Below, piece by piece: positions 1 through 17,000 of a DNA stretch of 30,596 nucleotides. The notes below the pieces were generated by a model, which did not search any database, was not told the origin of the DNA, and worked only from the letters and a program-made list of their open reading frames with translations. Every line of letters starts with the position of its first letter. Position 1 is the first letter of the stretch. Where the stretch lies: NCBI GenBank assembly GCA_964476035.1, contig CAYYZD010000002.1, forward strand, positions 1 through 30,596. The letters are read 5' to 3'. The DNA comes from an uncultured archaeon. GTDB taxonomy: Archaea > Asgardarchaeota > Baldrarchaeia > Baldrarchaeales > DXJG01. The position numbers and the translations under genes are program-made.

Positions 1-1302
1 ATGCAAATTCCACAAGTTTGCAAACCGTTCCCTAATGTACTGTACTACACCTTCCACACTTTCTAAACTTGCATTGCAAGTTAATGAAAGTTCTCCTCCC
101 ACCCTGACTCTTGGGTGATAAACGTTTTCCCTGCCCTTCCTTTCCTTATGCAAATATCCCTTTGCCACCAAACCTTCCAGTTTTTCATAGACTGTCCTCC
201 GTGAATAGCCAAGAAAACTTCCTACAAGGTCAAGTACTTCATTTACAGTTACTCCTCCATCTTGCCCGTCGCACACGTTTTCAACCGTTTTCAGAATGAA
301 CTTCTCTTCTTCGGTTAAATCGAATATCGTCCTCTCAATAGCCCTACTCCCCAACCTCAACGCAATGTACAAGTCTGTTAGGTCGGCTTCATCTCTCTTA
401 TCTTCTGGCTTCTGAAAATACCTACATATTGCGACGATTTTTATCAGTTCACATAGCTTGTCGGGGTCTCTTCGGGATTCGCTTCTATCAGTATTGAACA
501 AGTCGATTAACCTCTCAGCGTAAGGGATTTTCGGATCAACGTTCACTTCTTCAACAAGAATCTTAAATGCAGTTCTCCAAACCTTTAGTTCCTCACTGTC
601 GGGTGATAAAACACTCCTTTTTCCTTCATGTAATCGTAACTTCTCCAGCATTATTTTCTTGGTTAATTCTGGACTGCTTGAAGTTTCTAACCTCCACATT
701 CCACTTTTCAGTGACGGGGAAATGTTCATGACATTCGTAGTGGTAATGATCCCCTTGATTGGCATGTATACTGTCTCAGTAGTCATCCTTTGACTTCTCT
801 AATCCATATATGCATACTCTGAAATTATTCCCCCATCGTCCGCCCTATGTAACCTTAAAGTCCTGCCTATTTCTCCCTGCATCCTTTCAATGTCGGGAAC
901 ATAGAGTAGATCCACGTCTCTTAGGTTTTGAGAGTATCTAAGACTCGCTGGAGTGATGTAACCTCTTTCAATGTACTTTACTGCTTCTCGGAGTAGATCT
1001 AAACTTAGTCTGACCATAGTATCCTTTCCCGTGCCACTTTCACCAACTAACTGGATTAATCCCGTATAGCCTTTTTTTACCCCTAGTATTAGCAACGGTA
1101 GCAGTCTCTTGTTTTGTTCTTCTCCCAAAACAAATCTTGGTCTGTTTATTCTTTGGAGAACCCATCCTTTTTCGAGCAATTTGCCTAGTTCGTAGAAAAA
1201 CATGGGGGATTTAAGCAGTTCCAGTGCTTTTTTACGGATTCTATTTTCTTCCTCTTCTTCACTTCTTATAATGTGCCCCAACCGTCGATAACTTTGACTC
1301 AA
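1..1302 (-). pseudogene. P-loop (AAA+/MCM-like) ATPase, putative replicative helicase of the element, with C-terminal winged helix; 3'-truncated by the window edge; one in-frame TAG at 799-801 (pseudogene, read-through or sequence error)
   Basis: TTG start at 1302 with upstream GGAG(G). Walker A GESGTGKD. Manual translation past the TAG stays open for 266 codons to position 1: ...SEYAYMD*RSQRMTTETVYMPIKGIITTTNVMNISPSLKSGMWRLETSSSPELTKKIMLEK...GVTVNEVLDLVGSFLGYSRRTVYEKLEGLVAKGYLHKERKGRENVYHP... The ORF track shows only the first 167 aa. Confidence 0.75.
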
Positions 1303-1305
1303 CTT

Positions 1306-1527
1306 TTATCCCTCCACCGTGTTCCAAATACTATCTAGGTCTCTCCCGAGTGCAGTGATTTGTTCTTCCTTCTTTTTGGGTTCAATGTAGGGGTTTCTGT
1401 TCATCCAGGCACGGATTATAGCGCGGACGAATTCGCTTCTATTGGCGTAACCAAGTTTCTTGCGAAGATTTTCCAACTGGTCATACATCTCCCTGCTGAG
1501 CGAAATGGTGAGTGTAGTGATTTTCAC
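1306..1527 (-). CDS. Ribbon-helix-helix (CopG/NikR N-terminal-like) transcriptional regulator
   Basis: Beta strand TTLTISL followed by helix-turn-helix with NRSEFVRAII; GAGGTGA RBS upstream of the GTG; stop 3 nt before the ATPase start. Confidence 0.85.
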   Translation of the reverse strand: MKITTLTISLSREMYDQLENLRKKLGYANRSEFVRAIIRAWMNRNPYIEPKKKEEQITALGRDLDSIWNTVEG

Positions 1528-1675
1528 ACTACATCACCTCTATTAGCTGTATTCCATTTGAAAATTATTTTTAAAAGCGTTTATAAAATTATTGTTGTTG
1601 TCATACAATGAGCAGGATGGTTGATGATATATATGTTCGTTTAAACAAAAATATATATCTTGGAGGAAAGTTGAG
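1528..1675. promoter_or_regulatory. Divergent AT-rich promoter region between the two RHH genes
   Basis: AT-rich with TATA-like TTTATAAA and ATATATAT runs; imperfect palindrome TTGTCATACAA near 1597-1607; RBS on both sides. Confidence 0.5.
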
Positions 1676-2134
1676 ATGAGTCGAATCATAACATTCAGAT
1701 TGGAGGAAAAAACGAGAGAAAAATTGGAAAGCCTTTGCAAGAGTCTAGGGCTAACCATATCTGATTTTGTTCGACAGGCAGTCATGAGAGAACTGATGAG
1801 AGAAAGCATAGATTTCAATACGGTTCTCACTGAACTTCTGGTTAGAAACCAGCTAGATACTATATTTTTAGCGAAGCTTTTTGTACAGCAGGACACTGCA
1901 ATTAGGAAAATATTTACAATCCTGAATCGATTGCTGAAACAAATCGACGGAGAACAGTACAAGAGGCAAATGAAGGAAATAGATGAACGGGCAAAGAAAC
2001 TCGACGAAGAACTGACTGAAGAGTTAGACAAGTGGAAAACTGTTCTTTTCTACCTCGCAAATAGGGACTTTAAAGGGCTCAAGGACTATCTTGAGCGTCT
2101 AAGATATCCATTAAGAAGACATGGAGGAAATTGA
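1676..2134 (+). CDS. RHH DNA-binding protein with C-terminal helical/coiled-coil region
   Basis: MSRIITFRLEEKTREKLESLCKSLGLTISDFVRQAV fits the RHH pattern; GGAGG RBS. Confidence 0.8.
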   Translation: MSRIITFRLEEKTREKLESLCKSLGLTISDFVRQAVMRELMRESIDFNTVLTELLVRNQLDTIFLAKLFVQQDTAIRKIFTILNRLLKQIDGEQYKRQMKEIDERAKKLDEELTEELDKWKTVLFYLANRDFKGLKDYLERLRYPLRRHGGN

Positions 2135-2135
2135 C

Positions 2136-3158
2136 ATGGTTTCTAGTCTTCAACAACTCCCACAACAACGTCAACGTCATCATCGAGAGGTAGGGGACGA
2201 TAATAATATCGTAGTCGATCGACGTGACAACAGCGTTGATGACAGCGTCGATGTCTCCGATGTTGATAGACCAGAGTCCCAGTCCCAGCGATATGTCTGT
2301 CCCCACTGTGGAAAGAAATTTGACAGTGAAATGGCACTTGAGATGCATTCAATTAGAGTACATAAACGATCTGCAAAACCAAAAGAAACCAAGAAAGAAG
2401 TCAAGGTAACGAAGGTTCCCCCAATCCGCGAGGAAGGGGAAGCTTTAGTTCCAGACGCCGAGACGCAACTGAAGAATTTTCTAATAACCTTCGGCTTATC
2501 TGAGAGGGATGCGAATGCAACAATTGAATTTCTGAGAGCGTATGGTTTGGATAATTTAGAAAAGCTTAACGAAGCACTAACAGATTTAGGTGTCAGTCTT
2601 TCACGGAGGAAAATCATAATTGAAAGTTGGAGCAACCTTCGAAATATCAAAATTCCACCATCTTTGATGCAGAAGTTGGGGATAAGGCCGGTTATGCGTG
2701 AACAAGTTGAATACGGCTACTACGAATATCCGCAACCACAGAGAAGGACTAATGTTTCTGAAACTGCCGAATTGATACGCGCATTGGCAGAATATCAGAA
2801 AAGTATGAAGGAAAATGTTAATTCCTCCAATGACAACATGTTTTTACTCCAGCAAATACAGGAGTTGAGGCAGCAAAACGAACAGCTGCGTAAAGAACTT
2901 GAGGAACGGGAGAGGAAACGTGAACTTGAGGAAATAAGAAGGGAAATTTTAGATCTTAAAAACTCAACTATTAGGGTGCATAATCAATATACCGTGATTT
3001 CCGACGCAATCCGCGAATTGACTGGACTAATTAGGGAGTATTTTAATTTAGCACGAAGTCTCATTACGGGGAGGATTCGTCCCGAACTTGAAGAGAGCGA
3101 ATCTTCACGCTCATCTGTTTACAAATCTCTTCCCGAAGAACTTGTAGTGGAGGAATGA
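2136..3158 (+). CDS. C2H2 zinc-finger protein with acidic low-complexity N-terminus and C-terminal coiled coil (track start 2121; ATG 2136 preferred)
   Basis: YVCPHCGKKFDSEMALEMHSIRVH = C-x2-C-x12-H-x4-H; GGAGG at 2123-2127 precedes ATG 2136; E/R/Q-rich heptads. Confidence 0.8.
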   Translation: MVSSLQQLPQQRQRHHREVGDDNNIVVDRRDNSVDDSVDVSDVDRPESQSQRYVCPHCGKKFDSEMALEMHSIRVHKRSAKPKETKKEVKVTKVPPIREEGEALVPDAETQLKNFLITFGLSERDANATIEFLRAYGLDNLEKLNEALTDLGVSLSRRKIIIESWSNLRNIKIPPSLMQKLGIRPVMREQVEYGYYEYPQPQRRTNVSETAELIRALAEYQKSMKENVNSSNDNMFLLQQIQELRQQNEQLRKELEERERKRELEEIRREILDLKNSTIRVHNQYTVISDAIRELTGLIREYFNLARSLITGRIRPELEESESSRSSVYKSLPEELVVEE

Positions 3159-3517
3159 AAATGGAAGAGGTGAGAAGGTCTCTTATTGAAACGAGGAAGG
3201 TACTTGAAGATTTGAGAGAAGCACTCGGCATTCCTGTACTCAGAAGGAGATTTAGGGAAATGACGCCACAACTCTCTCCGTCTGTGGAAACACCGACACA
3301 GAAGACGGAGAGAGTGGTAGTGGAGCAACCGACGGAGGAAAGACAAGAAATTGTTGAGAGACCAGTGCAAATACTCAACTTTCCTATACGTAATGCAATT
3401 GCTGGTTTCATCCAATCTTTAGGTGAAGTAGCCAAAAAGAGAGTTGAGATCGAGGAGAAAAGGGTTGAACAGGCTCAGGAAAAAGAGAAATTTGAGTATA
3501 GATCCCTGAGGGGGTGA
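3155..3517 (+). CDS. Hypothetical protein, charged/coiled-coil
   Basis: ATGA overlap with the upstream stop, GGAGG RBS, 120 aa. Confidence 0.7.
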   Translation: MKMEEVRRSLIETRKVLEDLREALGIPVLRRRFREMTPQLSPSVETPTQKTERVVVEQPTEERQEIVERPVQILNFPIRNAIAGFIQSLGEVAKKRVEIEEKRVEQAQEKEKFEYRSLRG

Positions 3518-3523
3518 AGACGG

Positions 3524-3730
3524 ATGAATATTGATTGGAGGACAGTTCTTGAAGTTGGATTGATGGTTGTCACGACTATATTCGCTACACAATGGGGGAA
3601 ACTAAAAGAAAAATTCCACGATTTCAGGAAATTAATAGACACGCTTGATGACGCCGTAGCAGATGATAGGGTAACGAGAGAAGAACTCAAACAAATAATT
3701 CAGCGCATAAAAGAGTTGCTAAGGTGGTGA
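3524..3730 (+). CDS. Small membrane protein (one N-terminal hydrophobic helix plus amphipathic tail)
   Basis: TVLEVGLMVVTTIFATQW hydrophobic segment; GGTGA RBS. Confidence 0.7.
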   Translation: MNIDWRTVLEVGLMVVTTIFATQWGKLKEKFHDFRKLIDTLDDAVADDRVTREELKQIIQRIKELLRW

Positions 3731-3732
3731 AC

Positions 3733-3873
3733 ATGGAGGAAATTAAAAAGCCTGTCTTTTTCATTCTTGAGAGAGTGCATTCAGCATGGATACAGTTGAG
3801 GGAAGTATTTTGGAAGCGAGTGGAGGCTCGAGTGAAAAATGCTGCAGCGAGGATGCGGGAATTTCTACAGTAA
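3733..3873 (+). CDS. 46-aa hypothetical protein not in the ORF track (MEEIKKPVFFILERVHSAWIQLREVFWKRVEARVKNAAARMREFLQ)
   Basis: Manual translation; GGTGA RBS directly upstream; fills the gap between 3730 and the Alba gene exactly. Confidence 0.6.
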   Translation: MEEIKKPVFFILERVHSAWIQLREVFWKRVEARVKNAAARMREFLQ

Positions 3874-3874
3874 C

Positions 3875-4114
3875 TTGGTTGTGATCGGAAAGAAACCGTT
3901 ACGTAACTATATTTATGCTGTCCTTGAAAGACTGAGTCGAAGTGGTAAGGCAGTTGTCGCAGCGAAGGGAAATTTAATCGGGAAGGCATGTACCGTTGTG
4001 GAATTTATAAGGCAAAGGTACCCGCAAGTACGGGTTGAAAGGATTTTCCTTGACTCCGAAAACTACGAGAACCGCGTAATCCCTAGATTGCGAATTATTT
4101 TGCTACGCAGTTAA
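3875..4114 (+). CDS. Divergent Alba-family nucleic-acid-binding (chromatin) protein (track start 3839; TTG 3875 or GTG 3881 more likely)
   Basis: VVIGKKPLRNYIYAVL...VVAAKGNLIGKACTVVEFIRQRY matches the Alba consensus VxIGKKPvmNYVlAvl...ikARGraIskAVdvvEivrnrF. Confidence 0.8.
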   Translation: MVVIGKKPLRNYIYAVLERLSRSGKAVVAAKGNLIGKACTVVEFIRQRYPQVRVERIFLDSENYENRVIPRLRIILLRS

Positions 4115-4287
4115 AACTGCACGCACTTAAACCCGTTAGATGATGATTTTTTGATGTTCCGCATGCATTTAAACCGTTTTTTATCGGAGGTATTCACGCA
4201 AAACACGGAGGAAAATGGTTTAACACATTAAATTTCAATTGTGTAATTCTGGTAACATGATCATGGTCGGGTTTTAAGGTTTTTGTC

Positions 4288-4584
4288 GTGTGTTTTGAGG
4301 TAAGGGTAAGATTGTACATAAACTTTACACTGATTGGAGCATCAGAAGTAACAAGAAATTCGATGAGTTATTTGAAGAATACAAACTTCACATTTACCGA
4401 GTCATGGCTTTATAATAGCTATGAGACGTGGGTACAAGGGTCTGTGTGGAGGTTCCGTTTACCAACGGCTTACGATGCCTATTTCATCACCATACCTGCT
4501 GGAACCCATGTCTACTACATAGACTTCCAATTAAATACGCAATGCACAAGCTTGGAATATGCTGTGTGGTTCCAAAATGAATGA
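4288..4584 (+). CDS. Hypothetical aromatic-rich beta-strand protein, possibly the remnant of a gene starting at ATG 4215
   Basis: 98-aa ORF with protein-like composition but no RBS at 4288; GGAGG+ATG at 4215 is immediately followed by a stop. Confidence 0.35.
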   Translation: MCFEVRVRLYINFTLIGASEVTRNSMSYLKNTNFTFTESWLYNSYETWVQGSVWRFRLPTAYDAYFITIPAGTHVYYIDFQLNTQCTSLEYAVWFQNE

Positions 4585-4985
4585 ACCACTCCTATTTTAT
4601 TTTGTTGTGTTGGGTAAAACCATCGATTGCTGAGTATTTTTGTCGGTTCCAATTAGCAAGAATAGGGTATGCTTTACAAACGCAAAGAATGAATGAGTGT
4701 TTTCCTGCTTTTTTACTCGTTTCAAAGGTTTCTGGATGTCGTTTCGACATGCTCAGGGATGACTGAATTTTACTCGTTTTATCTATGTGCAACATGGCAG
4801 AATCAGCAATTTTTATACACTGCGGCGAGATTAATATATATGGGTGTGCAGGTTTGCTGATTGCAATTGAGAGAAAAGCCCATTCCTGTCGTCTCTTGCG
4901 GAAAGAAGAAAGGATATTCCGAGTCTAATTGTAATGTTTTGGTCACTACAAAATTATATGATTTTAGTATTGTGGTCGTGATTGC

Positions 4986-5609
4986 ATGTTCCCTCGTAAA
5001 AAGCTGGAGATGCTACTTGAAAAGTTAAGAGGACATCCTGATCCCCATGTGCTGCTTGAACAGTATACTATTCCAGCTAGAGTTGCTGCTAATATTCTTT
5101 TTATTGCTTGTTATGTTTATGGAGATATTAAAGGGAAAGTTGTTTATGATCTGGGTTGTGGTACTGGAAGACTGGCTATTGGGGCTGCTATTTTGGGTGC
5201 TCGTAGAGTGATTGGTGTTGATGTAGATCCAAAAGCCTTAAGAGTTGCTCGTATTAATTCTGTGATTGCTGGTGTGGTAAGTAAGGTTGAGTGGATATTA
5301 GGTGACGTTGAACATTTGAGTGGTAAATGTGACGTGGTGGTTCAAAATCCACCTTTTGGCGTACAGAGGCGTGGTGCAGATAGAAAATTTATTGTAAAGG
5401 CCCTAGAAATCGGGTCTGTAATTTATTCGTTACACAAATCTAATGAAGAAAGTAGGAAGTTTATTAGGAGACTTGTTAAAAAATATGGTGGTAGGATTGA
5501 TGTGATAATTTGTATGGATCTTCCTCTTCGCCCAGTCTTCCCGTTCCATCGGAAACGTATTCATGTAGTTAAAGTTGATCTCTATAGAATTGTTAAGGGG
5601 GGTATTTAA
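4986..5609 (+). CDS. METTL5-like (COG2263) SAM-dependent N6-adenine RNA methyltransferase
   Basis: LEQYTIP, DLGCGTG SAM-binding motif, NPPFG catalytic motif; conserved position upstream of csl4. Confidence 0.9.
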   Translation: MFPRKKLEMLLEKLRGHPDPHVLLEQYTIPARVAANILFIACYVYGDIKGKVVYDLGCGTGRLAIGAAILGARRVIGVDVDPKALRVARINSVIAGVVSKVEWILGDVEHLSGKCDVVVQNPPFGVQRRGADRKFIVKALEIGSVIYSLHKSNEESRKFIRRLVKKYGGRIDVIICMDLPLRPVFPFHRKRIHVVKVDLYRIVKGGI

Positions 5610-5610
5610 T

Positions 5611-6195
5611 ATGGAGAAAATAAAGACTGGAGATTTTGTATTACCAGGCGATAGACTGGGGACAATCGAAGAGTTTGTTCCCGGTGAAGGAACTTATGAA
5701 GAAAATAGTGAAGTTTATGCGGCATCAGTCGGTTTCGTATTAATAGATCATTTAGATAAGAAAATTAAAGTTTATAAGCCTGGAATCGTAAAACCTTTGA
5801 TGCCTCGAGTTGGTGACATTGTTCTGGGTAAGGTTTCACATGTTCAAAGTCAGATGGCTTCGGTAGAGATTTTTCAAATTAATAAGACTATAATTTCAAC
5901 TCCTTTTACAGGAGTTATTCATATCTCACAAGTTAGTAGAGCTTTCACAAATGTTATGCCAGATGCCTACAGAGTTGGTGACGTTATTAGGGCTAGGGTT
6001 ATAAAGGCAACAGTTCCAATACAGTTATCAACTATTGGCAGGAAGTTTGGTGTTCTTCTGGCATTTTGTTCATTTTGTGGCGGTGTTTTAGAGAAGCAGG
6101 GCGAAGATAAGCTTAGATGTTCAAATTGCGATCGTATCGAGACAAGAAAAGTGGCTATAGATTACAGAAGGAGTATAAAAGGTAGACGGGCATGA
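5611..6195 (+). CDS. csl4: Exosome complex RNA-binding subunit Csl4 (track start 5575; ATG 5611 preferred)
   Basis: FVLPGDRLG..EEF.PGEGTYE N-terminus, S1 domain, C-terminal CSFC...CSNC Zn ribbon, ETRK.A. Confidence 0.93.
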   Translation: MEKIKTGDFVLPGDRLGTIEEFVPGEGTYEENSEVYAASVGFVLIDHLDKKIKVYKPGIVKPLMPRVGDIVLGKVSHVQSQMASVEIFQINKTIISTPFTGVIHISQVSRAFTNVMPDAYRVGDVIRARVIKATVPIQLSTIGRKFGVLLAFCSFCGGVLEKQGEDKLRCSNCDRIETRKVAIDYRRSIKGRRA

Positions 6196-6830
6196 ATCTT
6201 AAGAGAGAAGTGGTTTTACATGTTAAAAGCGATCGTGAAGCGATGGAAGTATTAAGAGCAATACGTAAACATTTACGACCATTTAACGCCTATGTTCGCT
6301 ACGAAAAGGGAAAGATTCGCCTTACAATTTACGGTTCAAAGGATCACGTTAGGATTGCCTTAAACGAGATCAAGAGTATTTACAGGAAAATTAAAAATGC
6401 CCTATATAAGAATAAGGATGGTATGTACCAGTATGATGCTTCTCTTATTGCTGAAAAGAGTCAGGTAACTGTCTCTATTAAGGATTTGGGGAAAATCTTG
6501 GAGTTAAAGGGTTATAAAGGCAATGTTCAAGACACCCTACTTAGGACAGATGTTGAGCTTGAAGAAGTAATAAATCTTGCTCGCAAGTACCGAAAATTGA
6601 TCGACGAAATACAGGATGTTGGACCGAAAATTATAAGAAAGATCTTGTGCATGGCAACGATTATAACTGGTATGGACCATAAAAATCTCCTTAAAGTGGC
6701 TATTTCAAAGGGTCTAATTAAATATTTAGGTAACAACCGGTACGGATTGGTTGCCACACCAGATGAAACATGTAAAAAACTTATAAAGGAGGCTCTTAGT
6801 GGTGAAAATAAAAATTTTAGAAATAAGTGA
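6192..6830 (+). CDS. DUF2067-like conserved archaeal protein
   Basis: Position between csl4 and rpoL, length and general sequence character; ATGA coupling. Confidence 0.6.
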   Translation: MNLKREVVLHVKSDREAMEVLRAIRKHLRPFNAYVRYEKGKIRLTIYGSKDHVRIALNEIKSIYRKIKNALYKNKDGMYQYDASLIAEKSQVTVSIKDLGKILELKGYKGNVQDTLLRTDVELEEVINLARKYRKLIDEIQDVGPKIIRKILCMATIITGMDHKNLLKVAISKGLIKYLGNNRYGLVATPDETCKKLIKEALSGENKNFRNK

Positions 6831-9286: not shown

Positions 9287-10345
9287 ATGTTGACTAAAGA
9301 AGATTTAGCTAAGTACCCAAGTATTGAACTTGCACGGGAATATGTTAAACAATTTAATATTGATGTTGCGACTTTAGCTGATGAACTTCCAGGTGTTGCA
9401 AATAGAGCATATCAAATACTTAAAGATATTATTACGAGAGGAATTTACACTTATGTTTCCAGCGATGTTGAAACCGAAATTTTGGCATTCCCTGTTGTTA
9501 GACTTTTTATAGATGTTATTGGTGATGAATGGCTTAGACGTCGATTTGCTGTTGCTTTTTCGAAGAGAGTTGGTCGATTTTTGCAGGGAGAAAGCAATGA
9601 TAAAATATTGGAAATTGCGAAAACGCCCGGTAACGTAAGTGAGAGTGGTTGGGATTTGATATATGAGGTAAAGAGGATAGGTATTAAGTATTATGAATGG
9701 AAGCTACATTTCAAAGATTACCTAAGTGTCGCGGTTCATTTTCACGACATAGCATGGAAAATGTGTAATCATCCGGTTGCAAATGGTTATGTTAGATTAA
9801 CTAAACGTGAACTAGCTAGATTAATGGCAGAAGCCTTTAAAGAAAGAGTATTAGAAAGAAAGATTCCGAAAAGATTCATAGAGCTACCGGAAAAAATGAT
9901 GTCAATTATTAGGAAAATAGAAGAGTTAGTTAGAGAGTATAAGAAGGAAGTTATAAGAGAGGTTCCAATAAGAGTTGAAGTGTCAGGGGGTATTTACCCT
10001 CCATGTGTACAGTTTATTCTTGAGCGAACCGAAAAGGGGGAAAATCTGAGCCATGTAGAGAGATTATTTCTTATGTTTTTTATGTTAAATATCGGGAAAG
10101 GGGAAGAAGAAATCGTGAATTTGTTTCGAAAGATGCCAGATTTCAGTGAAGAAAGGACAAGATACTATGTTAGACATGCCAGAAACAAGGGTTATACAGC
10201 TCATAATTGTGATACATTAAAAACCTATGGGATTTGTAGACCTGCACATAGGTGGTGTTCTGAAGGGAAAATCAAAAATCCGCTTATATTTTATAACAGA
10301 ATGTTGTATGCCCGTGGAAAGAGGCGTAGTGAAAGTGAAGAATGA
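9287..10345 (+). CDS. priL: DNA primase large subunit PriL with C-terminal [4Fe-4S] domain
   Basis: YPPCVQ, GENLSHVER, F...PDF.EERTRY, NC..LK..GIC...C...KNPL.FY (four Cys). Confidence 0.92.
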   Translation: MLTKEDLAKYPSIELAREYVKQFNIDVATLADELPGVANRAYQILKDIITRGIYTYVSSDVETEILAFPVVRLFIDVIGDEWLRRRFAVAFSKRVGRFLQGESNDKILEIAKTPGNVSESGWDLIYEVKRIGIKYYEWKLHFKDYLSVAVHFHDIAWKMCNHPVANGYVRLTKRELARLMAEAFKERVLERKIPKRFIELPEKMMSIIRKIEELVREYKKEVIREVPIRVEVSGGIYPPCVQFILERTEKGENLSHVERLFLMFFMLNIGKGEEEIVNLFRKMPDFSEERTRYYVRHARNKGYTAHNCDTLKTYGICRPAHRWCSEGKIKNPLIFYNRMLYARGKRRSESEE

Positions 10346-11585
10346 AGCCAAAACGATCTTACTTTTGAAAAGTCTCTTTGGGGCTTATTACAGAGAGAAC
10401 GACATACCGCCACCTCCTCAATTTAGTAAAAGGGAGTTCGGTTTTATGCTCTGGGATAAAGAAGGAATGATCAGACATAAAACCTTCTATAACAGAACGG
10501 AGTTTCTAGCCTTTCTCAGAAAAAATGCGCCGAAAAATGCTTACAGATCTGCAGCCTATTATTTAGATCCTGAAGCTCAAAGCATGGAAGGGAAGGGTTG
10601 GGTAGGTGCTGACCTGATATTTGACATTGATGCTGATCATCTGATCACATCTTGCAAAGAAGTTCACGATAGATGGATATGCATAGATTGTGGAATCAGA
10701 GGTACGGGGAAAAAACCTGCCCAATGTCCAAGTTGTAAATCAACAAGAATTGATGAAGTGTCATGGATATGTGATCAATGTCTTAATTCCGCGAAAGAAG
10801 AGGTTTTTAAACTTTTAGATTTTCTCTTCGACGATTTTGGCGTTTCAGAAAAGGAAGTTAAGGTTGTATATTCTGGACACCGTGGTTATCATGTGCACGT
10901 AGATAATGAGACCGTAAGGGAATTAAGTAGCGATGGGCGACGAGAAATTATTAATTATATAACTGGAACTGGGATAAAAGTAGAGAATTTAGGTTTAATT
11001 GAAGTCTCTGCTGATGGACGTAAATTTCTCATCGGTCCCGATTTGACCAGTGAAGGTTGGGGGAAACGTTTAGTTAAATCCATAATCAGAATGTTTTCAA
11101 GCTCTGATCTAGAAGATACCTTAAGAAGTATTAGTATACCGGAGAGAAAAATCAAAATATTGTTGGCTAATAGGGAAAGACTTGTAGACGCATTAAGTTC
11201 AACTCCCTCAAAATGGGATTTTTTACATGGTATAGGTATTTCTATTTGGGAAAAAATCGCTTTAGCGGCCATAAAAAGAATGGCTGCTCAAGTGGACGAG
11301 CCTGTGAGCGTAGATGTTCATAGACTTATTAGACTTGAATATAGTTTACATGGTTCAACTGGTTTTAAAGTAACTCCGATTTCGGTTACAGATTTAGAAC
11401 GCTTTGATCCATTTAAAGATGCAATTGTTTTTAAAGGTGAAAAGGAAGTAATTTTTAGGGAATATTGTCCAGAGTTTAGAATAGGGGATGAACTTTTTGG
11501 ACCCTATCAACAGGGGGAAAAAGTAGAATTACCCCTTCCTGCCGTTGTGTTTACGCTTGCTAAAGATGTTGCGGAGCTACCATAA
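10329..11585 (+). CDS. priS: DNA primase small (catalytic) subunit PriS (track start 10227; GTG 10329 or 10335 more likely)
   Basis: REFGF, FDIDAD catalytic motif, YSGHRGYHVHV, DVHRLIRLEYSLHGSTG. Confidence 0.95.
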   Translation: MKVKNEAKTILLLKSLFGAYYRENDIPPPPQFSKREFGFMLWDKEGMIRHKTFYNRTEFLAFLRKNAPKNAYRSAAYYLDPEAQSMEGKGWVGADLIFDIDADHLITSCKEVHDRWICIDCGIRGTGKKPAQCPSCKSTRIDEVSWICDQCLNSAKEEVFKLLDFLFDDFGVSEKEVKVVYSGHRGYHVHVDNETVRELSSDGRREIINYITGTGIKVENLGLIEVSADGRKFLIGPDLTSEGWGKRLVKSIIRMFSSSDLEDTLRSISIPERKIKILLANRERLVDALSSTPSKWDFLHGIGISIWEKIALAAIKRMAAQVDEPVSVDVHRLIRLEYSLHGSTGFKVTPISVTDLERFDPFKDAIVFKGEKEVIFREYCPEFRIGDELFGPYQQGEKVELPLPAVVFTLAKDVAELP

Positions 11586-14076: not shown

Positions 14077-17000
14077 TTAATCCAGAACTATAACCCTGGT
14101 TTCTAAGGTATACCCCTTTGCAAAATTAATTGTTATAATTATTATTTTACTACCTATTACCGACGTACAATTGAATACTTTTAGTGTAGTTGAGTTCCCC
14201 GGATATATAATGGTCGACCCATTAAATTCGCAAACTGTACCGTTAATTTTAATTGTTGATATTTCTAGCTGCTCTATGCCAAGGTTTGTAACATTTATAA
14301 TCACTGTTCCATTTGTAAATGCTTTAGCACTAATATTGGCAAAAGGTACCACCGCGACCTTTGTTACTGAAGTTTTGTTCGACCACCGCGGTACAAAGCT
14401 GAAATTGTAATACACTGTAACATTCACTATCTGTGAAACGTTAAGAACAAGACCTGTACTCACCTTTAGTACAGCAGTTTCACCACTACTTAGCGTGGAA
14501 CTTCCACTAACTGTCTCAAAACTGTAAAGAGTTCCATTAACGGCAATGTTACTGATATTCAGCGGCAAATCCATGGGATTAGCAACTGTTATGGTTACGA
14601 CTCCGTTAGTATATGCTGTTGCACTCTTGACGTGAAGAATAAGTGATGGAGTTGGAGCAACGCTGACATTTGCGGTGGTTGTTAATGTTCTGTTTGGGGC
14701 ACCTACTGGATGATAAGTTACGTTTACTGCCACCGTTAGTCCCTTTAGTTTTGAAGTTTCGTTGAAACCTAGGTCTATTACAAAAACCGATTCCTCTTGC
14801 GGGAAAATCGCTAATGAACCATTAAATATATTAAAAACAGTCTCTGTTGAGTTTATTTTAATAGAATCAACTGTAACTGGATAGCCTCCAATATTTTTAA
14901 CCCGAATAAAGCCTATACCGTTATCATAAACTATAGACCTTGTTTCATCGATATCAAGAGATATCTGAGGAGTTTCAAGAATATTGGCGTTTACGGATTT
15001 ATAAATTCTGTAGCCAGGATACTCCGGAACATCTGCTATAACTTTAATTGATACATTATCACCAATAAACCATTTTTTTCCAGTATTAACGAAAAGATCG
15101 ATTGCTTCTTTTGGTTTTAGTGTTTGTTCGTCACCTATAATCTCAAAGCTATATGTTTTACCATCTATATAAACCTTTGAGAGAGAAATTTCATGAATGC
15201 CTGTATTATTGACTTTTATAATAAACAGTCCATTAGCATACGGATTAACCTCTACTATTTCCATCCTTGCTTCCAATATGCTATAGTTCACCTCGTATAT
15301 CTTAACAAATCGGTTACTCGAAAAGTAAGCTGGCTTAAATATTTTCTCGAAAAGCGTCCAGTGTCCCGGATCGACAATTAAAGTTAAGTATCCGTAGGGA
15401 TCCGAGCGGTAAAACAGGTACTTGTCAGCCAAATTATTTCTTTGTATGAAATCTATCAAGTATCCGCAATACCTACTACTACGATCAGGTTCCCCGTAGA
15501 AAAGCATTTTATAGATTGTAGAGTTAAGTAGTGTTCCAGTTGGATTGGTGATTTCTCCGTAAAGACTTTCATTTATTAGCTCTGGGAAATGGTCCTCCGC
15601 GATTCTAACCATCCATGGCCACTTAAACTCGTCACCACCAAGTCCTTGGTAGCAGTATCCGAAAAAGACAAGCACATGCGTTACGTTGTATCGTTTGTAG
15701 ATCTTTACCGCTTCTGTTTCATTTAGCGCAAATGCTGCCCCCATCCATGCGATTTGTGTACTGTTAAGGGTTGCATTGTCAACCAGTGTTGTTTTGTTGG
15801 CCACGGTGTTTATCCAATATCCATAGTCCCACCAAGAAGCTACTATCGCATCTTCTGGTAGATTATATCGCATCCACATAAGAGTTTCTTGCCAATCTGG
15901 CTCCCCGTTAGGTAACATTTCTACCCCGGCCATGTATTTTGACGAAACATAGGCCCCATAATATGTTGTTATGATAAGTAATGATGCGATGAAAATTAGA
16001 GTTATAATCGTATATTCTGTGCCGACAATACCTGAAATCCTCGCTCTTTTCCGTCTTGCCAAAGGCATACCTTCACGTATTTCTGTCAAGACGCCTACAA
16101 ATGGAGAGAGGATTTGATCGATGGCATATGCTGAAAGAAGACAGACTACTGGCGAAAGTATTAATACTAATCTTATCATTGATCCAGCAAAGTATGTGGC
16201 CGTTAACCCCAGAACTATAAGAAAGATGTCTTCATTTCTTAAACGTTTAAACGAAAAATATATTCCAAGTGGATATATAAACAAGAGAATGTGTAGATTG
16301 AAGTAGAATTCAGACCATGAAGTGGCTGCATGCTCTGCTACTGAAGCTATTATACGCGCTTTTTCCCTATATAAAGGATTTAATACCGTCAAGAATTTTC
16401 CACTTATAGGCTTTATATATTTCTCCAGGATTTCAACAAAAGAAAATCCAGTATACCATGAATATGTAAAAACGAAAGATACCATTACAGCGAAGGTCAA
16501 AATTATGTACCCTAGAATTCTTCTTTGAATCTTAACCTCTATAATTCGTTTAGCTACTGATGAATTATACACCGTTGGAATTGCTTCATAAATAAATAAC
16601 AATATTAGCATAGCTAGGGCTGGAAGCAGATCAGTTTTAGTTAATATAGCTGGTCCGAGTCTTGGTACCCTTGTAGCTATAAGGAAACCAATGCTTATCG
16701 TTGTAGTATAAGATAAAAGAAGTGATCTGGAATATCTATGCGAAATGAGAAGTAAGAACGCATAAACAGCTAGTAAACCATACACATACACATATGCTCC
16801 CCATGATGCCGATAAATATCCAAGAACGAGCCCCGCAATAACCCCTGAAAGTATTGACTCCCTTTTTAATGATCTTATAAAGAAATATAGAGTCGCTATT
16901 ATTAGTAAAATGCCTATTGCTTCGTTGTCGTAAAAACCTGCAGTTGTACGTTGAACATATCCTGGTACAAATGCAAGGAAGAAAGCTGCAAGTAATCCCG

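Follow-up and report, generated by a model that had tools for sequence, protein, structure and literature searches.

Does a mobile element of an Asgard archaeon encode a chromatin protein of its own, and what might it do with one? The question is raised by a short reading frame near one end of a 30,596-nucleotide stretch of DNA (the window), which is the whole of contig C2 in a 161-contig metagenome-assembled genome (G000) that is 82% complete. The NCBI proteins that match the PCNA and TFS of G000, or the TBP and Alba of a relative in its genus, at 90% identity or more bear the name Candidatus Baldrarchaeia (Odinarchaeota on a few older records), which makes the host an Asgard archaeon. An earlier note, made by reading the window, had attributed this frame to a divergent Alba carried by a mobile element. 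We examined the gene, the element around it, and its relatives. All of the genomes compared were metagenome assemblies.

The Alba gene and its product

The features discussed below are listed here. L025, L036 (a 63-kb JGI contig) and L037 (a 6.7-kb ENA contig) carry further copies of the element, the latter two in complete form, and G001 to G003 are three genomes of the same genus as the host.
1..1302, minus strand: P-loop (GESGTGKD) and winged-helix gene, presumed replication protein, cut by the contig start
1306..1527, minus strand: 73-aa RHH (CopG) gene, divergent from the operon (RHH_1, 37 bits); coordinates taken over from L037 3500-3721 (window = L037 minus 2194)
1676..2134, plus strand: 152-aa RHH/CopG-NikA-like protein, gene 1 of the operon (RHH_1, 26.6 bits; NikA-like, 27.1 bits)
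2121..3158, plus strand: 345-aa C2H2 zinc-finger protein (weak C2H2 Pfam matches)
3155..3517, plus strand: 120-aa ORF conserved in the element family (98% amino acid identity to the L025 copy)
3524..3730, plus strand: 68-aa ORF, position conserved in L025, L036 and L037
3724..3873, plus strand: small ORF of 49 aa (39 aa in L036), overlapping the Alba start
3822..3826, plus strand: GGAGG ribosome-binding site, read from the sequence, 12 nt upstream of ATG 3839
3839..4114, plus strand: Alba gene, last cistron of the rightward operon (Pfam, AF2, Foldseek, pN/pS)
4121..4277, no strand assigned: conserved non-coding block just 3' of the Alba gene (one mismatch to L025)
4284..4700, no strand assigned: window-specific replacement in the element tail (about 110 nt of other sequence in L025 and L036)
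4700..4862, no strand assigned: right-end tail of the element (local alignment to L036 12203-12355, ending at the att repeat)
4950..5609, plus strand: beginning of the conserved host chromosome (homology to G001-G003 starts exactly at 4950 in all three)
4986..5609, plus strand: methyltransferase (Pfam)
G000 contig C36, about 10097-10546 (locus L002 1447-1896), minus strand: host zinc-ribbon-like/Alba gene

The plus-strand frame ending at 4114 proved to be a real gene, but the start that had been assigned to it, TTG 3875, did not hold up. Read from that codon the product has 79 aa, and from ATG 3839 it has 91 aa. The ATG is the likelier start because the GGAGG lies 12 nt upstream of it, because L036, which carries the other allele, is identical through this codon (AAAAATG) and diverges at codon 2, and because the similarity to L025 extends N-terminal of the TTG. 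The gene ends a rightward operon in the order RHH, C2H2, 120-aa ORF, 68-aa ORF, small ORF and Alba, and oligo-T tracts lie 3' of it at 4147-4153 and 4176-4182.

The product matched Pfam family PF01918 with 31.4 bits (E 1.6e-7; gathering cut-off 25), and a phmmer search of all PDB sequences returned only Alba proteins as top matches, the best being Mja10b (1nh9, E 5e-11); on these two results the match is not a chance one. The L036 allele scored 34.2 bits against the same Pfam cut-off of 25. No match to the gene was found in PHROGs. An AF2 model built on a 71-sequence alignment had a pLDDT of 90.8 and the topology b1(13-15)-a1(21-35)-b2(37-43)-a2(44-60)-b3(64-76)-b4(79-90). Because so many canonical Albas in the alignment might by themselves impose the Alba fold, the model was rerun with the four subfamily sequences alone, giving a pLDDT of 84.6 with secondary structure unchanged. 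The structure search proposed in the earlier note returned the Alba fold with both models (TM 0.8-0.9). At least the 20 top Foldseek matches of each were Alba structures (TM 0.79-0.91); 1nh9 matched with a TMt of 0.90-0.91 and an rmsd of 0.8-1.2 Å, followed by Sso10b (1h0x), the Alba-RNA complex 3wbm and the Alba2-DNA complex 3u6y, while the Rpp20/25 and Pop6/7 relatives and SpoVS were far weaker matches.

The sequence features by which the protein had been called divergent were all recovered in a 14-sequence alignment. The GKKP motif is kept (VIGKKPL; residues 17-20), aligning with GKKP of Mja10b and the family GxKP, and its Lys-Lys pair in the b1-a1 loop corresponds to K16/K17 of Sso10b. The segment ARGRAISKAV has become AKGNLIGKAC (AAKGNLIGKACTV). 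The basic RGR loop at the b2-a2 junction, R42/R44 in Sso10b, is thereby not preserved in either allele: residues 43-45 read KGN, Lys standing in place of the first Arg and Asn in place of the second. The canonical RF reads RY (IRQRY), placing Tyr61 of RQRY (RQKY in the second allele, P) at the dimer-dimer stacking position, a conservative change from the Phe that is F60 in Sso10b. The C-terminal hairpin is shortened, its beta3-beta4 loop being six residues shorter than in most canonical Albas, and in the AF2 model a 2-residue turn links strand 64-76 to strand 79-90. In the alignment beta4 reads IPRLRI where the conserved motif is VSxIEI. The net charge is +11 (pI 10.5), compared with +2/+3 for the canonical Albas encoded by the host and by a relative in its genus.

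The element Alba thus resembles Sso10b/Alba1 (1h0x) and Mja10b (1nh9) in fold and topology (TM 0.8-0.9, rmsd 0.8-2.0 Å), in GKKP, in the aromatic dimer-dimer residue and in size, but differs from them in being 28-33% identical, in AKGNLIGKAC, in the hairpin shorter by six residues, in IPRLRI, in its charge of +11 and in being encoded by an element. Asn45, where RGR has its second Arg, and the short hairpin arms predict a binding mode unlike that of the host Alba, and with these two changes DNA binding could be weakened or shifted to RNA.

The integrative element and its chromosomal junction

That the gene lies on a mobile element, as had been claimed, was borne out by an integrase, a 9-bp repeat, an empty site on contig C9 of G000 and the lack of the element at the syntenic site in three genomes. 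A homologue of the C2H2 protein (P0053, 87% identical) led to the full element, of about 6.6 kb, on L036 and L037. Both carry, in order, a tyrosine integrase of 465 aa, an 82-aa ORF, the 560-aa P-loop/wHTH protein (minus strand), the 73-aa RHH protein (minus strand), the 152-aa RHH protein, the C2H2 protein, ORFs of 118, 68 and 39 aa, an Alba of 84 aa and a non-coding tail, and they are 93% identical to positions 1-4283 of the window. The integrase is XerA-like (Phage_integrase, 60 bits); the window contig ends before the corresponding position. The L036 element is flanked on both sides by the 9-bp direct repeat TAAAGAATG. Both L036 flanks are contiguous on G000 contig C9 (15317-15460), joined across a single copy of TAAAGAATG at 15338-15346, and this stretch is therefore an empty site. 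The L036 copy adjoins GTPase and proteasome genes and the window copy adjoins the methyltransferase gene, and both sites are empty elsewhere.

The 560-aa protein of L036 is 99.3% identical over 434 aa to the P-loop/wHTH product of the window and has wHTH Pfam matches; searches of PDB and NCBIfam gave nothing beyond the wHTH and the P-loop. In the window this gene contains an in-frame TAG at 799-801 (minus strand), where L036 has CAG, and the window copy of the element may be immobilised or decaying, though its Alba ORF is intact. The C2H2 protein was found in none of the 40 relatives searched, and a gene was called at the position of the 120-aa ORF in L025, L036 and L037. The window-specific replacement at 4284-4700 consists of about 400 nt of unrelated DNA and includes a 98-aa ORF (4288-4584) with no family match.

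Most element ORFs had no match in PHROGs, and none of them, the small unassigned ORFs included, had a Pfam or PHROG match to a capsid or packaging protein. We therefore regard the element as integrative rather than as a provirus, and the earlier suggestion that its Alba might package the element's genome, if taken to mean packaging into virions, is without support in an element of this size with no recognised capsid gene. A tRNA att site was considered and rejected, as the window contains no tRNA gene.

The host part of the window aligned with the three same-genus genomes at 78-83%, the alignment ending at 4950. From 4986 the core genes are those for the methyltransferase, Csl4, DUF2067, RpoL, an RNase III-like protein and Tfs, continuing with an OB-fold gene, pcna, priL, priS and gins51. 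Upstream of the equivalent of 4950, G001-G003 have a divergently transcribed enolase gene, and the element is absent at the enolase/methyltransferase site of all three. The G+C content of positions 1-4949 is raised (0.42-0.435, versus about 0.37). A second metagenome-assembled genome, GCA_054386355.1 (locus L005), is 99.9% identical and has the same element-host junction. On the enolase side contig C6 ends about 8 kb short, and the left end of the element lies outside the G000 assembly.

Small integrative plasmids or cryptic elements with tyrosine recombinases are found in Sulfolobales, among them pXZ1 and pSSVi. The element resembles them in its small size, intact terminal tyrosine integrase, RHH regulators, P-loop/wHTH replication-type protein and short direct repeats. 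It differs from them in having an Asgard archaeon as its host and in that no tRNA target was found in the window, and the Alba gene resembled no record of the phage or plasmid collections.

Relatives, alleles and a conserved non-coding block

Two other Alba genes were found in G000. One, on C37, encodes a canonical Alba of 106 aa with ARGRAISRAV; the other, on C36, encodes a 149-aa paralogue in which a Cys-rich, zinc-ribbon-like N-terminal domain is fused to an Alba domain, and it has an orthologue of 147 aa (P0005). The same-genus genomes each have three chromosomal Albas, one of which adjoins TBP. The element Alba is 33-36% identical to the host Albas and at best 39-40% identical to the chromosomal Albas of the same genus. 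On the two NCBIfam AlbA models, NF003088 (cut-off 90 bits) and TIGR00285 (88.25 bits), it fell below threshold with 47.3 and 44.0 bits. The C37 Alba scored 137.7 and 139.1 bits and the TBP-adjacent Alba of the same genus 134/122 bits, over the cut-offs, and the C36 paralogue scored 73/68 bits (72.6), under the cut-off.

A maximum-likelihood tree of 106 sequences, three of them from the element, was built from few columns and has many unresolved forks. The element Albas form a long-branched clade of their own (support 100/98; stem of 1.84 substitutions per site). The C37 Alba pairs with its same-genus orthologue G001_C17b and the C36 paralogue with P0005, and the element clade joins neither. 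The tree shows separation from the host copies and has no bearing on origin. The phylogenetic check suggested in the earlier note, which weighed a grouping with chromosomal Alba at a core locus, thus came out in favour of divergence: the element Alba does not group with a host chromosomal Alba, and its gene is at no core locus. The sole supported neighbour of the clade, P0010, is also long-branched, and this grouping may reflect long-branch attraction. The P0010 gene adjoins a TnpB-like gene. Two other short-hairpin Albas, P0007 and P0018, are on contigs too short for gene context; P0003 (210 aa) has two tandem Alba domains, and P0036 (987 aa) has five Alba-like stretches.

Like Alba2/Sso10b2 (1udv, 2h9u, 3u6y), the element Alba is a diverged Alba that accompanies a canonical one, and it gives a comparable structural match. 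Alba2, however, is a chromosomal core gene of Thermoproteota that heterodimerises with Alba1, whereas the element Alba groups with no host paralogue.

An early word-indexed homologue search had found only a 98% identical copy. An exhaustive search of 1.84 billion representative proteins (E <= 1e-3) revealed a single cluster of true orthologues, P0002, at 71% identity; every other match was at most 44% identical, and no close chromosomal relative was present among these proteins. Scans of genome contigs and viral contigs with the single protein, and an alignment-based scan of viral contigs, gave no match. A scan of metagenome contigs for the motif KGNLIGKACTV yielded three further contigs. The same element context was seen in all seven additional contigs carrying the subfamily, two of which (L026 and L037) are duplicates within the L025 and L036 set. 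The Alba ORF was intact in seven of seven copies read, with one truncated by the contig end, and Alba is the last gene of the element in every copy. As judged from these contigs, the subfamily is confined to one element family.

The survey of Alba in mobile elements that the earlier note had called for showed such genes to be rare, with none in the GenBank virus and plasmid sets but with two examples on tailed-virus contigs of IMG/VR. Neither the element Alba nor the canonical host Alba, used as tblastn queries, matched any of 72,556 plasmids or of 50,697 phage and archaeal-virus records from GenBank. At E <= 1e-3, a library of predicted viral protein structures likewise gave no Alba match. 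A profile-derived scan of IMG/VR identified Alba genes on two viral contigs, L044 and L045. On L044 (UViG_3300030616_000103) a 92-aa Alba (1806-2084) lies between the large terminase and portal genes; on L045 the Alba gene (5986-6282) is near those for a Sak annealase and a ParB-methylase. Like the element Alba, these are Alba-family genes on mobile genomes, and their scores of 41 and 79 bits do not reach the NCBIfam cut-offs. L044 and L045, however, are head-tailed viruses, whereas ours is an integrase element with no capsid gene recognised, and the Albas are only about 31-32% identical. "Alba_2" in Acidithiobacillia elements was considered as a precedent and set aside as a different family, the AlbA_2 domain (PF04326) being distinct from Alba. 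Our search of the Asgard mobile-element and virome literature found no mention of Alba, nor is Alba mentioned in the thaumarchaeal integrated-element survey of Krupovic et al. (2019). An "Alba" label appears without discussion in the haloarchaeal or nanohaloarchaeal virus maps of a 2025 preprint (10.1101/2025.02.15.638363). Alba genes on mobile elements are therefore uncommon and have hardly been studied, though there are precedents.

The subfamily comprises two Alba alleles, W (the window, L005 and L047) and P (L025, L046, L036 and L048), which are about 70% identical in protein sequence. Between W and P, pN was 0.19 and pS was 0.79, with synonymous sites saturated, and dN/dS within allele P was 0.10; on these values Alba is a real protein under purifying selection. 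Over most of the length they share, the elements of the window and L036 agree at 99-100% identity, the clearest exceptions being the C-terminal half of the C2H2 protein (48-73%), the Alba CDS (65-69%) and the non-coding tail downstream of it (75-82%). The breakpoints of the Alba block fall directly after the ATG and a few bases beyond the stop codon. Given such sharp breakpoints within near-identical flanks, we conclude that the Alba CDS has been swapped as a cassette between diverged elements by recombination. A second recombinant block, at about 2700-3150, covers this half of the C2H2 protein and diverges from L036. The window also has twelve clustered substitutions at 3403-3441 relative to L047, to which it is otherwise identical over 1018 nt; this patch within the 120-aa ORF looks like micro-recombination. 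Between the window and L005 there are seven differences in 10.8 kb, two of which, E77G (4068) and I81V (4079), are non-synonymous and fall in the hairpin of Alba. With counts so tiny, these changes are suggestive only.

Just downstream of Alba, the non-coding block at 4121-4277 (about 157-160 nt) is about 99% identical to L025, compared with about 79% for the neighbouring genes, and differs from L036 in three small variable patches only. Rfam gave no match in the whole window or in 4050-5000, folding of either strand of the block gave a z of about -1, no compensatory pairs were seen among three sequences, and an exact search of viral contigs for the block found nothing. A non-coding RNA was considered and is unsupported. 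As there is no Rfam match, the fold is at random level and covariation is absent, the block is more likely a DNA-level site, and it is probably cis-acting: an att arm, the promoter of the integrase gene or an origin. In an excised circle the order would be Alba, block, att core and integrase on one strand.

Candidate functions of the element Alba

The explanation we favour, and hold to be probable, is that the gene encodes a diverged Alba-fold nucleic-acid-binding protein that belongs to the integrative element and serves as its own architectural protein, outside the host's core chromatin. It would form Alba-type dimers that bind DNA (or RNA) with little sequence specificity, and these would coat or bridge the element's DNA in support of maintenance, replication or site-specific recombination. 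Nucleoid-associated proteins borne by bacterial plasmids have an architectural role of the same kind. One such protein is Sfx of IncX plasmids, a plasmid-encoded H-NS paralogue (PMC11796372). The likeness drawn in the earlier note, in which a mobile element carries a diverged paralogue of a nucleoid protein abundant in its host, holds, but the element Alba is of an unrelated fold and from another domain of life, and the comparison is one of analogy only.

A more specialised role, as an accessory factor in recombination or replication, is possible if unlikely; here Alba would bend or bridge the block near attP, in the manner of IHF or Xis, or remodel an origin there. The gene order expected in the circular form fits this reading, as does the conservation of the block above that of the genes with no RNA-structure signal, which suits a cis element at the DNA level, and the protein is small and very basic. 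The block is, however, without defined repeated binding sites, and alleles 30% apart beside a constant block argue against tight sequence-specific co-evolution. A function in recombination is not known for Alba. It is rather doubtful that Alba acts as a swappable specificity cassette, with two ancient alleles exchanged at the CDS borders; the swap could be driven by balancing or diversifying selection on contacts with host chromatin (counter-silencing through host Alba), on contacts with a host defence or on rivalry between elements (incompatibility or immunity).

The earlier note had proposed that the protein heterodimerises with host Alba and so retunes host chromatin or xenogeneic silencing, by analogy with Alba1/Alba2 heterodimers and with the H-NS paralogues of plasmids. 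The Alba dimer interface is formed by helix alpha2 and strands beta3-beta4, which are kept in the AF2 models; the Tyr for Phe at the dimer-dimer position is consistent with the proposal, and besides the element protein there are two or more Alba paralogues in the host and three in its relatives. Alba1/Alba2 heterodimers limit filament growth (PMC11894787). Against this stand the low identity to the host Albas (33-36%), the change of VSxIEI to IPRLRI in beta4 and the altered RGR loop, and with these the heterodimer or anti-silencing idea is possible but decidedly unlikely. Many Alba-superfamily proteins bind RNA, and the models match the Alba-RNA complex as well as the RNA-binding relatives Rpp20/Rpp25 and Pop6/Pop7, so a protein that binds transcripts of the element or its host, and thereby regulates how stable they are or how they are translated, might be envisaged. 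We think this very unlikely, since neither Rfam nor folding found a structured RNA nearby and the sequence features fit DNA binding equally. Most improbable is that the gene is not specific to the element at all, being either a passenger copied from a host Alba and now decaying, or an ordinary chromosomal paralogue near an island. The broken presumed replication gene of the window element is the point in its favour; against it are the intact ORF in all seven copies and strong purifying selection, the constant place of Alba as last gene of the same element and the failure to find it at the equivalent site in three genomes of the genus, and the lack of a close chromosomal relative among the 1.84 billion representative proteins.

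It is well known that the carriage of bacterial plasmids is eased by paralogues of host nucleoid proteins encoded on them; archaeal counterparts are barely documented. Here Alba is the only recognisable chromatin-type gene of a compact, fully delimitable Asgard element, and it is constrained, highly basic and structurally altered. The system is small and expressible, with a 91-aa protein, two natural alleles, a conserved block of about 160 bp and an integrase, and its loop and hairpin vary naturally at sites believed to govern how Alba binds DNA. It is suited to asking whether mobile elements of archaea bypass the chromatin of their hosts or manipulate it. If the reading of Alba as a swappable cassette were true, it would point to a conflict between mobile elements and host chromatin in the archaeal lineage closest to eukaryotes.
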